Assembly: GCA_023666265.1 (NCBI GenBank)
Contig: JAMPCH010000001.1
Coordinates: forward strand, 87,808 to 151,807
Source of the DNA: Roseburia sp.
GTDB taxonomy: Bacteria > Bacillota > Clostridia > Oscillospirales > Ruminococcaceae
Length of the DNA: 64,000 bases
Reading direction: 5' to 3'
In this document: positions 24,250 to 58,268 of the stretch, in pieces
How the letters are laid out: the number at the start of each line of letters is the position of its first letter
How positions within the stretch are numbered: the first letter of the stretch is position 1
Translations under genes and position numbers: made by a program
Notes under the pieces: generated by a model
Databases searched by the model: none
The model's input: only the letters and a program-made list of their open reading frames with translations
Told to the model about the DNA's origin: nothing

Positions 24250-24293
24250 GAGAGCCGAAGGGGAGGACCCTGTAAAAAATTAACAAAAATGCT

Positions 24294-24322
24294 TGATTTT
24301 TTTTGGAAAAAGATGTATAATA
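24294..24322 (+). promoter_or_regulatory. Promoter TTGATT-17-TATAAT (TG-extended) starting the long PduL leader
   Basis: ttgattttttttggaaaaagatgtataat. Confidence 0.55.
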
Positions 24323-24539
24323 AGTTTAGACTACACCGCACAATTATTGTCGTTCGAGTGGCAGTCAGATTTTTCGTCAGATTGTACAGATTTTATGCAG
24401 GAAGGCTGACGCCTTTCAAAGAAAATTTGTGCAATATGGCGGAAAATATGGCTGTCAATCGGACGGCAAAGCCGCAGGCGGTAATTGTACGGTGTTGCCG
24501 TTACTACGTTTATTCTATTCACAATGGAGGAATTTCAAA

Positions 24540-26689: not shown

Positions 26690-27760
26690 ATGAAAAATGA
26701 ATTAAGAGATCGGGTTGAGAACGTCCGACTTTCCGACGAGGGAAAATGCGTCGTTATTTTAGATCAGACGAAGCTCCCAAATGAGGTCGAGTTTATCGAG
26801 CTGAAAACGGCGGAGGAATTTTATGACGCGATCTATACGCTGAAGGTGCGCGGTGCGCCCGCGATCGGGATCTGTGCGGGCTTTGCGCTATATGTTATCG
26901 CGAGCCGCTTCCCCGAGGGGTCGAAGGAGTTTTTTTTAAAAAAACTGATCGAAGTGAAACGCTATCTCGCCTCCTCGCGTCCGACCGCCGTCAATCTTGT
27001 TCACGCGCTCGATCGAGTGGAACGGGCGGCGCTTTCCGAAAGGGAAGCGGAGATCCCGGATATTCTGACGAAAATGCGATCGGAGAGTATCGCCATTCAA
27101 GACGAGGATATAGAAATGTGCCGCGCAATCTCGGAGTACGGACTAACGCTGATCCGGGACGGAGACGGCGTGATCACGCATTGTAACGCGGGACCGCTCG
27201 CGACCTCGGTCTATGGGACGGGGCTCGGCGCACTGATCCTCGGGGCAGAGCGCGGGTCGCACTTTCGCGCGTATGTGGACGAAACGCGCCCGCTTTTACA
27301 GGGGGCGCGGTTGACCGCTTATGAACTGGATCGGGCGGGGGTAGACGTAACGCTGATCTGTGACAATATGGCGGGCGTGATTATGAAGCAGGGGAAAGCG
27401 AACGCCTGTTTTGTCGGTTGTGATCGCGTCGCGGCGAACGGCGATACCGCGAATAAGATCGGGACGAGCGGTCTCGCGATCCTCGCGCATTACTACGGTA
27501 TCCCGTTTTATGTATTCTGTCCGTCGTCGACCGTCGATTTCGGCTGTAAGACGGGCGCGGATATTGTGATCGAGGAACGCGATCCCTCGGAGATCGGCGA
27601 AATGTTTTTCAGCCGCCCGATGTCGCCGCGCGGCATTCGCTGTTATAATCCCGCGTTCGATGTAACGGAGGCGAAGCTGATCACGGCGATCGTGACCGAA
27701 AAGGGGATCTGTCGATACCCGTATACGCGGTCGCTCGCGGAGCGACTCGGCACGATTTAA
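26690..27760 (+). CDS. mtnA: S-methyl-5-thioribose-1-phosphate isomerase (eIF-2B alpha/beta/delta family)
   Basis: 356 aa. [13 protein letters not shown]...[43 protein letters not shown] motifs of MtnA. Confidence 0.9.
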
Positions 27761-27811
27761 GGCTACACCGCACAATGATCGGCGTACAGATGTGCGGGCA
27801 AAGGCGTAGCC
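27761..27811 (+). repeat. Nested hairpin carrying the recurrent CACCGCACAAT motif (mtnA-mtaD spacer)
   Basis: ggctac-A-ccgcaca[atgatcggcgtacaga]tgtgcgg-gcaaaggc-gtagcc. No following U-run. Confidence 0.5.
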
Positions 27812-27860
27812 GTTCATTGCGCGGTATTGCCTTAACTAAAGCACGGAAAGGAATGTTAAA

Positions 27861-31478: not shown

Positions 31479-31547
31479 GATATAGCCTTAAAATATTTCA
31501 TCGGACATAAAGTTAGGAAAAGCAAGTGATTCTTCCATAAACGAAAA

Positions 31548-31584
31548 ACACCGTACAATCGTTCGATCTCCGATTGTGCGGTGT
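31548..31584. terminator. Bidirectional palindromic terminator between mreB (+) and trpA (-); member of the CACCGYACAAT palindrome family
   Basis: acaccgtacaatcg-ttcgatctc-cgattgtgcggtgt (14-bp stem including one G.U). Flanked by aaaa upstream, which gives a U-run for the minus-strand transcript. Confidence 0.65.
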
Positions 31585-45937: not shown

Positions 45938-46556
45938 AACTTCGATTTATGAGCTTTTACGTCTTCGGAGCATCTCTCCGAACGATCCCGAAGCCGAAAA
46001 GATCGACCCGTCGGAGGTATGCTCTTTTTCGGGTTATCGCCCGTCGAAGCTCCCCTTTCGGTGGGATAAACGAGACGGCGGTTATCGGAAGGTCCGCGAG
46101 ATGATCCGAGAGGAGATCGTCTTATTCGCCGAAAGCGGCGTACATTTTTTTCAGACGGGGATGGCGAGAGGGATCGACCTGCTCTGCGGCGAGCTCGTCC
46201 TCGAGCTACGGAAAAAATATCCGATCAATCTGACCTGCGTCGTCCCCTGTATAAATCAATGTATGGGCTGGGGCGCGGAGGATCAGGAGACGTATTTTCG
46301 CCTGATCAAAGCGGCGACGAACGTCGTTCAGGTCACGGGCGAGTCGTATTCAAACGGCTGTATGTTAAAAAGAGATCGGTATCTTGTCGATACCGCACAA
46401 TATATGATCGCCGTTTTTGACGGGAAAAAGGGCGGTACAATGTTTACGATCAATTACGCGAGACAACAAAAGCGAACGATCATTGTTTTGAACCCCTCCG
46501 ATCATTCACGAACGGAATTGGTTCACGGAAACGAGGAAGGAGTACTTTATGTCTGA
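45915..46556 (+). CDS. DUF1273 / YpsA-like SLOG-family protein
   Basis: FSGYRPSKLPF...IREEIVLFAESGVHFFQTGMARGIDLLCGELVLELRKKYP.INL.CVVPC..Q...W.....Y..I...A..V.....ESYS...C...RD.Y.VD....IAVFDG.K.GGT..TI.YA matches the YpsA/DUF1273 pattern. Overlaps GH95 by 23 nt and GH2 by 8 nt. Confidence 0.65.
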   Translation: MFIELKSKTSIYELLRLRSISPNDPEAEKIDPSEVCSFSGYRPSKLPFRWDKRDGGYRKVREMIREEIVLFAESGVHFFQTGMARGIDLLCGELVLELRKKYPINLTCVVPCINQCMGWGAEDQETYFRLIKAATNVVQVTGESYSNGCMLKRDRYLVDTAQYMIAVFDGKKGGTMFTINYARQQKRTIIVLNPSDHSRTELVHGNEEGVLYV

Positions 46557-56891: not shown

Positions 56892-58268
56892 ATGGAAGAA
56901 AAAACAGAACTCGAACGTTTTATTACTGCCCCCGACGAAGAAGAAGCTTCGGGCGATCGGGAGGAGGCGGAGACGGACGAGGTAAGCGTCAATGATACAG
57001 TTCTCAAACGGGAAGGGGAAGCTCCTTATGGTGAGGAGACGAGCTCCGAAGAGGAAGAGGAGCTTTCCGAAGAGAGAGAAGAGCTTCCCGAGGAGGAAGA
57101 GGTTTTTTCCGAAGCGGAAGAGACTTTAGCGGACGAACCCGAGCCGACGATCCCGACGGATCAATCGATCGCGGAGACGGAGACGATCCTTCCCACAGAG
57201 GAAAAAACCACAACGACAGAGACGGACGGATCATGGAGATCGGCGGGAAAGCCGCGTTCCGCCGCCGTCGGGCTCGGGATCGCCAACATCGCGGTCGCGG
57301 TTTTAACGCTCGGGACGGTCGCGGCGAGCTTTCTCTTTTTTAAAGAGAGCCTCTTGTCCTTTCAGACCGAAACGGAAGAGCTTCAACAGAAGATCGATTC
57401 GCTCGAGGAGGAAAAACGGCTTCTCGAATCGGATTACATAGAGGTCATGAATATTTTAGAGGAAGAGCCGGACGACAGCGCCGTTTTATCGGGGATCGAA
57501 GCCGAATCGGGAAAGATCTTGATCTACGACTCTTCGGTCGGGTATTCGTGGATTCCCGTTTTATCGGAGCTTCCACAGCATAATTATCGAAAGAGCGGTT
57601 TTTTTGTGGACGAGCGCGGACGAATGCGCTATACCGAGCGTGGGGAAGCCTCGTCCTACTTCGGGATCGATGTTTCGTCGTACCAGGGAGATATCGACTG
57701 GCAGCTCGCGAAGGAAGACGGGGTCGAGTTCGCGTTCCTTCGGATCGGTTATCGCGGATATGGCGAAGAGGGAAAGCTTTGTGCCGATGAGAAATTTGTT
57801 CAAAATTACGAGGGCGCGCATGACGCGGGGATCGACATCGGGATCTACTTTTTTTCACAGGCGATAACGTCGGAGGAGGCGGCGGAAGAAGCGTCCTTTT
57901 TATTGGATCTCCTCGACGTGAGAACGCTCGAATACCCGATCGTATACGACTGGGAAACGGTCGTAACACCGGAGGACGATCCGCCGCCGCGAACCGAAGA
58001 CGTTATGCCGCAGACCCTAACGCTCAGCGCGATCTCTTTTTGTGAAGCGATAGAGGACGCGGGTTATGAGGCGATGATCTATACAAATAAAAAACAGGCG
58101 GTCATGAAGTACGACCTTCGTCAGCTTAGAGCGTACCCGGTATGGCTCGCGTATTACGATACGAATTTAAATTACTGCTATGATTTTGATGTATGGCAGT
58201 ACGGAACGGGGTCGGTCGACGGGATCGAGGGAGAGGTCGACCTAAATATCGCCATGATCAAGCGATAG
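56892..58268 (+). CDS. GH25 family muramidase (lysozyme) with poly-acidic N-terminal region, one TM segment and a coiled coil
   Basis: C-terminal GIDVSSYQGDIDW...F.FLRIGYRG... (GH25 signature). N-terminal approximately 100 aa highly E/D-rich. Confidence 0.8.
   Translation: MEEKTELERFITAPDEEEASGDREEAETDEVSVNDTVLKREGEAPYGEETSSEEEEELSEEREELPEEEEVFSEAEETLADEPEPTIPTDQSIAETETILPTEEKTTTTETDGSWRSAGKPRSAAVGLGIANIAVAVLTLGTVAASFLFFKESLLSFQTETEELQQKIDSLEEEKRLLESDYIEVMNILEEEPDDSAVLSGIEAESGKILIYDSSVGYSWIPVLSELPQHNYRKSGFFVDERGRMRYTERGEASSYFGIDVSSYQGDIDWQLAKEDGVEFAFLRIGYRGYGEEGKLCADEKFVQNYEGAHDAGIDIGIYFFSQAITSEEAAEEASFLLDLLDVRTLEYPIVYDWETVVTPEDDPPPRTEDVMPQTLTLSAISFCEAIEDAGYEAMIYTNKKQAVMKYDLRQLRAYPVWLAYYDTNLNYCYDFDVWQYGTGSVDGIEGEVDLNIAMIKR

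Follow-up and report, generated by a model that had tools for sequence, protein, structure and literature searches.

Recurrent hairpins in the window

The window, by which we mean the whole 64-kb stretch of DNA analyzed here, carries the motif CACCGYACAAT in the leader of pduL, at the junction of mtnA and mtaD, and between the convergent genes mreB and trpA (Table 1). Exact matches numbered five, against a mean of 0.00 in 100 dinucleotide-preserving shuffles, none of which had any match, and these five pair up as three inverted pairs, hereafter sites 1, 2, and 3. All three sites were intergenic, between called ORFs, and the identities of the neighboring genes were checked with Pfam. The original prediction of a recurrent palindromic motif in at least three intergenic regions was thus borne out. 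With one mismatch allowed, the sole additional match in the window was 46391-46401, where 0.68 such matches were expected by chance; by eye it looks like protein-coding sequence, and we treated it as chance. A 21-nt consensus of the family termini described below fitted five of the six arms of sites 1-3 with 2-5 mismatches and matched nowhere else in the window. The 9.5 kb upstream of the window contained no copy of the element, and the 73.5 kb read from the source genome held three loci with it. The window sequence is identical to contig JAMPBL010000001.1 of the MAG GCA_023666715.1.

Table 1. Positions of the three sites and their associated features in the window.
Feature	Position	Strand	Description
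Sigma-70-type promoter-like site, pduL operon	24293..24321	+	TTGATT, 17 nt, TATAAT
Site 1, probable long-form MITE copy, 171 bp	24329..24499	+	assigned by termini, fold, and homology to long copies
Site 1 termini			left degenerate GACTACACCGCACAATT; right AATTGTACGGTGTTGCC
Site 1 flanks	24325..24328 (left); 24500-24503 (right)		TTTA left, GTTA right; 3/4 identical
Site 1 arms, CACCGYACAAT	24334-24344; 24484-24494	+; -	pduL leader
Site 2, probable MITE copy, 71 bp	27761..27831	+	GGCTACACCGCACAATG ... CATTGCGCGGTATTGCC; between mtnA and mtaD
Site 2 target-site duplication	27757..27760 (left); 27832-27835 (right)		TTAA
Site 2 5' arm, CACCGYACAAT	27766-27776	+	
Site 3, core-only copy	31548..31584	.	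ACACCGTACAATCG, 9-nt loop, CGATTGTGCGGTGT; between convergent mreB and trpA
Site 3 arms, CACCGYACAAT	31549-31559; 31573-31583	+; -	

The two 11-nt arms of site 1, separated by 139 nt, form the base of a 163-nt hairpin at 24333-24495. The 221-nt pduL leader had a predicted dG of -95 kcal/mol (z = -9.45), and the plus strand of site 1 folded into 68 bp, 10 of them G-U, interrupted by a single C.A mismatch and by three G.A mismatches at intervals of 10-12 bp, with a dG of -84.8 kcal/mol vs -53.7 kcal/mol for the minus strand. The element starts 8 nt past the -10 box of the pduL promoter, and the ribosome-binding site of pduL lies ~30 nt downstream of the hairpin. Given this starting point, mRNA of the pduL operon would begin with the site 1 hairpin, a few nt from its predicted 5' end, and the ribosome-binding site would be left free. 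The tetranucleotides around site 1 look like a decayed 4-bp target-site duplication. GTTTA is present on both sides of the site, and a comparison of 24500-24520 with L111:170-185, from the relative described below, shows ~9 extra nt (CTACGTTTA) in the window downstream of it, so the boundaries of the insertion are placed approximately.

Site 2 lies between the stop codon of mtnA and the start codon of mtaD. The mtnA stop codon, TAA at 27758-27760, is inside the left TTAA of the element. Only the 5' arm had been noticed from the sequence at first; the 3' arm, CATTGCGCGGTATTGCC at 27815-27831, is diverged (diverged arm CATTGCGCGGTAT). Once transcribed, site 2 would form an intercistronic hairpin.

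Site 3, a 14-bp stem (one C.A mismatch) capped by a 9-nt loop, had neither the GGCAA outer termini nor a recognizable target-site duplication, and it differed from the 21-nt terminus consensus by five mismatches on one side and more than six on the other. Its assignment to the family, judged from a 12-14-nt core by itself, is less certain than that of sites 1 and 2. On the minus strand the stem is followed by UUUUUCGUUUAU (about 31536-31547), much like an intrinsic terminator for trpA. This U-run on the trp side, together with the 14-bp stem and 9-nt loop, agrees with the earlier placing of the hairpin at a terminator position. A terminator consensus scan that allowed loops of 3-8 nt did not return it, the loop here being 9 nt. 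Site 3 is probably a decayed or co-opted copy that is now the terminator of the trp operon.

Termini and distribution of the family

We scanned one genome per species for 185,579 bacterial and archaeal species with the pattern CACCGYACAAT-N(3-33)-ATTGTRCGGTG and obtained 108 hairpins, vs ~8 estimated by chance. About 77 of the 108 had full termini, nearly all in Clostridia genomes or MAGs and often several per genome. Another ~11 came from unrelated phyla and lacked outer termini, a number near the chance estimate. Aligned matches revealed an extended palindrome, TTAA-GGCAA-CACCGCACAAT-T ... A-ATTGTGCGGTG-TTGCC-TTAA, so that the motif forms the core of a longer terminal inverted repeat, the 17-nt GGCAACACCGCACAATT, which in most cases has TTAA beside it. 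The invariance of the 11-nt core was partly imposed by the search pattern; outside it, conservation was 66-89% for GGCAA, 77% for the next T, and 56-70% for the TTAA flank. Paired termini numbered 77 in all, three of them more than 1 kb apart and not counted as elements, and GGCAACACCGCACAATT was found on both ends of the 74 copies, whether short or long.

The same 17-nt termini occurred in dozens of species labeled Oscillospiraceae, Ruminococcus, Acutalibacteraceae, Ruminiclostridium, Subdoligranulum, Neglectibacter, Gemmiger, and Allofournierella, with other matches labeled Clostridiales and similar. Spread across several families, they are not the species-specific repeat first supposed. The hosts are gut and rumen Clostridia of the Oscillospiraceae, Ruminococcaceae, and Acutalibacteraceae type. 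Named isolates among the scan matches were Neglectibacter caecimuris, Allofournierella massiliensis, and Gemmiger, and the genomes RUG394, RUG13579, UBA6468, and RUG12424 each had 3-6 copies among the fetched loci. Based on rough ORF calls in these other genomes, copies were mostly intergenic, 24 in convergent, 41 in tandem, and 7 in divergent gene contexts. The usual place was 5-50 nt past a stop codon and beside unrelated genes, and in ~10 copies the core was 4-6 nt from the ORF end, as expected with the stop codon in the flanking tetranucleotide.

Several loci contained the 11-nt core without GGCAA termini (L012:1214-1239, L015, L024, L077, and L084; also L005, L074, and L079). These core-only hairpins had a GAAA or 3-nt loop followed by a U-run and occupied orthologous positions in several species of Acutalibacteraceae and Ruminococcus. 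They resemble conserved terminators and may be old co-opted copies like site 3.

Neither the window elements nor 18 copy-bearing loci had a match at gathering score in Rfam 15, and a search of 24-32 kb of the window at E<=10 returned only a spurious plant miRNA model. This was the microRNA precursor MIR7533 at 24346-24470 (29.9 bits, E=0.006, gathering score 230), a match far below the gathering score that we rejected as an artefact obtainable from any long hairpin. A scan of viral contigs with the two-arm pattern gave 0 matches. Literature searches by motif sequence returned unrelated primers only, and a general MITE survey (PMC11602168) contains no account of this family in its main text. 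In the sources reached by these searches, made by sequence and by MITE plus taxon, we found no description of such a MITE family in this clade.

Target-site duplications

For 71 distinct copies, with GGCAA...TTGCC set as the ends of the element, we compared the 4-mers lying just outside. Inverted outer flanks would indicate more stem, and direct outer flanks a target-site duplication. Exact, non-palindromic direct repeats were present in 13/71 copies (ATAG, CTAA, TAAT, TTAG three times, TCAA, CTTG, TAAA, TTAT, CAAG, TTGA, and others), whereas 20,000 permutations of the right flanks among elements gave 1.26 on average and never exceeded 7. TTAA stood on both sides in a further 7 copies, so identical 4-mers on both sides were seen in only 20/71 in total. 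Inverted 4-mers occurred in two copies, both of which were non-family hairpins. The commonest flanks were TTAA, CTAA, and TTAG. Because direct 4-mers numbered 13 where 1.26 were expected and inverted ones only two, we conclude that the element duplicates 4 bp of its target. In the window this duplication is exact at site 2, imperfect at site 1 (TTTA/GTTA), and absent at site 3.

Empty sites in relatives

A metagenome scan with MtnA yielded the closest relative found, L111, in which PduL was 94%, MtnP 90%, and MtnA 82% identical. Upstream of pduL, L111 had the same TTGATT-17-TATAAT promoter and the same ribosome-binding site, but the ~185-nt segment that holds site 1 was absent as one clean gap. 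The ORFs overlapping site 1 were likewise absent from L111, the whole segment being gone there. The two halves in the pduL leader had been likened to the terminal inverted repeats of a MITE-sized insertion, and a 171-bp element that is missing in the relative fits that description well. At the mtnA-mtaD junction, L111 and two further loci (L112 and L114) had the mtaD ribosome-binding site almost immediately after the stop codon and no element in between. Locations therefore vary between related genomes, at both sites in L111 and at site 2 in the other two, and the insertions at sites 1 and 2 are specific to this lineage. Since L111 keeps the genes without the element, neither site 1 nor site 2 is a conserved leader or a regulator site.

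Length classes, subfamilies, and activity

Copies fell into two length classes, short (43-65 bp, 35-71 at the widest) and long (166-177 bp, 166-236 at the widest), and the element had no coding capacity. Site 1 aligned with long copies in Neglectibacter caecimuris (L054) and two rumen MAGs (L036 and L046), with common strings that included CAGTCAGATTTTTCGTCAG and CGGAAAATATG. Further long subfamilies had the same termini and unrelated interiors, such as a 168-nt copy in L101. Other loci contained derivatives with internal deletions, solo ends, and nested ends; these and the length classes are typical MITE debris.

A 172-nt subfamily in Subdoligranulum variabile was found in 19 places on 8 records totaling 1.7 Mb, with TTAA on both sides. 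The copies were 92-100% identical, apart from one weaker partial match at 76%, and such near-identity suggests recent activity. The records, from strain TSDC17.2-1.1 (L130 and L131, accessions OY725879.1 and OY725839.1, and six more), are plasmids according to PLSDB. They are 55-387 kb long and mostly unannotated, with three copies within 40 kb, and may in fact be pieces of the chromosome. Two human-fecal virome contigs (L132:261-432 and L133:1-172; MT838915.1 and MT839603.1) deposited as 'UNVERIFIED: Bacteriophage sp.' also carried a complete copy of 172 nt, with TTAA to its right, and fifteen such records matched partially. The explanation could be phages that carry the MITE, or bacterial DNA present in viromes.

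Smaller and compound forms were also observed. At L029:2340-2390, a 34-nt mini-element (GGCAACACCGCATAATTCAGGTGTGCGGATTGCC) with TTAA on both sides was nearly identical to the left end of the long form, and because of this likeness a short hairpin appears to be nested within the 5' end of the long form. Tandem or nested termini and half-elements, being either a solo end beside a complete copy or two 5' arms with one common 3' arm, occurred at L068:3508-3735, L078:6510-6563, and L081:5664-5899 and suggest repeated insertion into, or rearrangement at, existing copies. At two orthologous loci in two species (L030:2802-2839 and L065:1701-1738), with flanks ~90% identical and the element at the same site, the 16-nt center was inverted (TGCGTCTTCATGCCGA vs its reverse complement, TGCGTCCTTGTGCCGA). 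This suggests either that the center flips between the termini or that two independent insertions took place in opposite orientations, and it may account for the occurrence of short copies in both orientations.

No transposase gene bounded by the termini was found in ~1 Mb of fetched DNA, and clustering the ORFs of >=220 aa from these loci gave no recurrent transposase-like protein family. Candidates for a parent insertion sequence in L054, L068, and L101 were rejected, as their widely spaced termini enclosed ordinary genes or the 168-nt element and no transposase.

RNA-level features

Four long copies from four genomes, site 1 included, each had 9-10 G-U pairs on the same strand, which folded better than its complement by roughly 27-34 kcal/mol. 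The better-folding strand coincided with the transcribed strand in 7 clear cases and with its complement in 2; a further 3 were ambiguous. This count was not significant, and the Subdoligranulum subfamily was split 2:2; an orientation bias, suggestive in the window-type subfamily, became mixed once the Subdoligranulum copies were added and was set aside. Site 1 and the Neglectibacter copy had purine-purine mismatches and the string CAGTCAGATTTTTCGTCAGA in common. Among the 24 short copies kept by the flank filter, self-complementarity of the centers was significant in only ~40%, and we accordingly claim no covariation-supported structure.

Where copies are transcribed, folding predicts that they would form stable RNA hairpins. 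At the 5' end of the pduL mRNA, the site 1 stem could protect the message or, as a long double-stranded RNA, be a target of RNase III. The likeness of the termini across families, combined with a strand-specific, G-U-rich hairpin in which purine-purine mismatches recur, also allows the speculative idea, to which we assign a low probability, that a conserved host or element-encoded factor reads the hairpin as RNA or single-stranded DNA. If true, the element would be a portable module setting mRNA 5' or 3' stability or termination, for example on the pduL operon.

Origin of the element

The 17-nt termini, 4-bp target-site duplications, empty sites, and multiple dispersed copies all support the MITE alternative within the original prediction, and we consider it very probable that the three sites are copies of such a non-autonomous transposable element. 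A transposase of the DDE type, provided in trans, would bind the termini and excise the element, which would then be pasted into AT-rich tetranucleotides, with TTAA-like (YTAR-like) targets preferred and 4 bp duplicated. In GC-rich genomes such tetranucleotides would be found mostly in intergenic DNA and at TAA stop codons, and a TTAA-like target, rare inside GC-rich genes, would be tolerated just past them. Such targeting would explain why copies lie a few nt past genes and why the flanking TAA is sometimes a stop codon, as in mtnA. The family of the transposase is a guess, because ~1 Mb of fetched DNA contained no autonomous element. Against the MITE reading stand also the identical flanking 4-mers in only 20/71 copies, the imperfect duplication and approximate boundaries of site 1, the core-only form of site 3, and the strand asymmetry of the long copies, which a purely DNA-level parasite does not need.

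In one alternative, the long form is a functional, strand-specific structured RNA, for example a small RNA or a module acting in cis on stability or processing, with mobility secondary or historical. The concentration of G-U pairs on one strand in four genomes, its folding advantage, the features common to the window and Neglectibacter copies, and the 7 vs 2 orientation count all favor this reading. Yet the orientation count lacks significance, with Subdoligranulum evenly divided, long subfamilies with the same termini have wholly different interiors, short-form centers are often not self-complementary, and the closest relative lacks the element. On balance we regard a primary RNA function as unlikely. 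Propagation as a REP-type element, an extragenic palindrome spread by a RAYT (Y1) transposase as in Proteobacteria, is very unlikely. The copies are indeed short, intergenic, imperfect palindromes past genes, and a CTAC motif adjoins sites 1 and 2, but CTAC is absent from the family consensus and the conserved part is a terminal inverted repeat around a variable center of up to ~140 nt. The REP label offered initially is further weakened by the significant 4-bp duplication, which REP propagation does not leave.

A regulator could also account for stem sequences that are conserved across many species and for two window copies just upstream of start codons. It would act either through a conserved cis-regulatory RNA motif or through a site for an RNA- or DNA-binding protein that co-controls pduL, mtaD, and others, much as had been proposed for the PduL and MtaD leaders. 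This is contradicted by L111, which has the genes, promoter, and ribosome-binding site and no element, and by the position of copies elsewhere, mostly just past the stop codons of unrelated genes rather than in leaders. The target-site duplications, the lack of an Rfam match, and an arm spacing that ranges from 3 to ~140 nt, unsuited to a dimeric operator, are further points against it, and we judge shared regulation to be very improbable. Chance recurrence of the 11-mer in ordinary terminator hairpins has practically no probability as a general explanation. It would suit the ~11 scan matches from unrelated phyla, whose number approaches the ~8 expected, and is conceivable only for core-only hairpins such as site 3. 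It is refuted for sites 1 and 2 by flanks that are common beyond the searched core and by the 0/100 window shuffles with any match.

Comparison with known systems

Correia elements of Neisseria and ERIC/IRU elements of Enterobacteriaceae are ~100-160 bp, non-coding, and intergenic, are bounded by terminal inverted repeats, and make short target duplications. Each is an imperfect palindrome over its full length, and its transcript folds into a long RNA hairpin; there are shortened variants, and several genera share the elements. The window family is like them in its small, non-coding, palindromic form, its inverted termini, its duplications, and its shortened variants. It differs in terminus sequence, in its anaerobic Clostridia hosts, in the abundance of very short forms of 43-65 bp, and in duplicating 4 bp at a TTAA-like target where Correia duplicates TA. 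Overall, the feature is a real but fairly ordinary MITE family, comparable to Correia and ERIC elements.

Insertion sequences of the IS5 family make 4-bp duplications at YTAR targets. MITEs derived from IS5 resemble the window family in this duplication, and the flanks TTAA, CTAA, and TTAG and termini starting with GG were noted in the latter, but many of its duplications are not YTAR (TCAA, CTTG, CAAG, and TAAT). No IS5-like parent was found in the ~1 Mb of fetched DNA, and an IS5-type origin, suggested by analogy, is a lead only. REP/BIME sequences with RAYT are similarly short extragenic palindromes past genes and can stabilize upstream mRNA, but, unlike the window family, they have no target-site duplication and no long variable center. 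The pneumococcal BOX, RUP, and SPRITE repeats and bcr1 of Bacillus cereus are also dispersed, small, non-coding intergenic repeats of Gram-positive bacteria, and some are MITEs with inverted termini. They have no sequence relationship to the window family and are confined to a genus or species group, whereas its termini are the same in several families.

For annotation, hairpins of this kind in Oscillospiraceae and Ruminococcaceae MAGs should be masked or labeled as copies of a mobile element and not taken for leaders, candidate riboswitches, or regulons. Copies serve as presence/absence markers between close strains, and the family points to a putative transposase with a wide distribution among important anaerobes of the gut and rumen. 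Insertions can coincide precisely with a stop codon or separate a promoter from its ribosome-binding site, here in central metabolic genes (pduL, methionine salvage, and trp), and the 68-bp hairpin with which the pduL operon mRNA is predicted to begin is a natural perturbation of expression that can be tested.

Two other features of the window were recorded. A SAM riboswitch (RF00162, 89.9 bits) lies at 257-361 on the plus strand, upstream of the SAM synthetase gene at 539-1711 (S-AdoMet_synt domains). Three tandem 21-nt repeats resembling CCGAAGAGGAAGAGGAGCTTT occupy 57046-57121, presumably within a gene encoding an acidic repeat.
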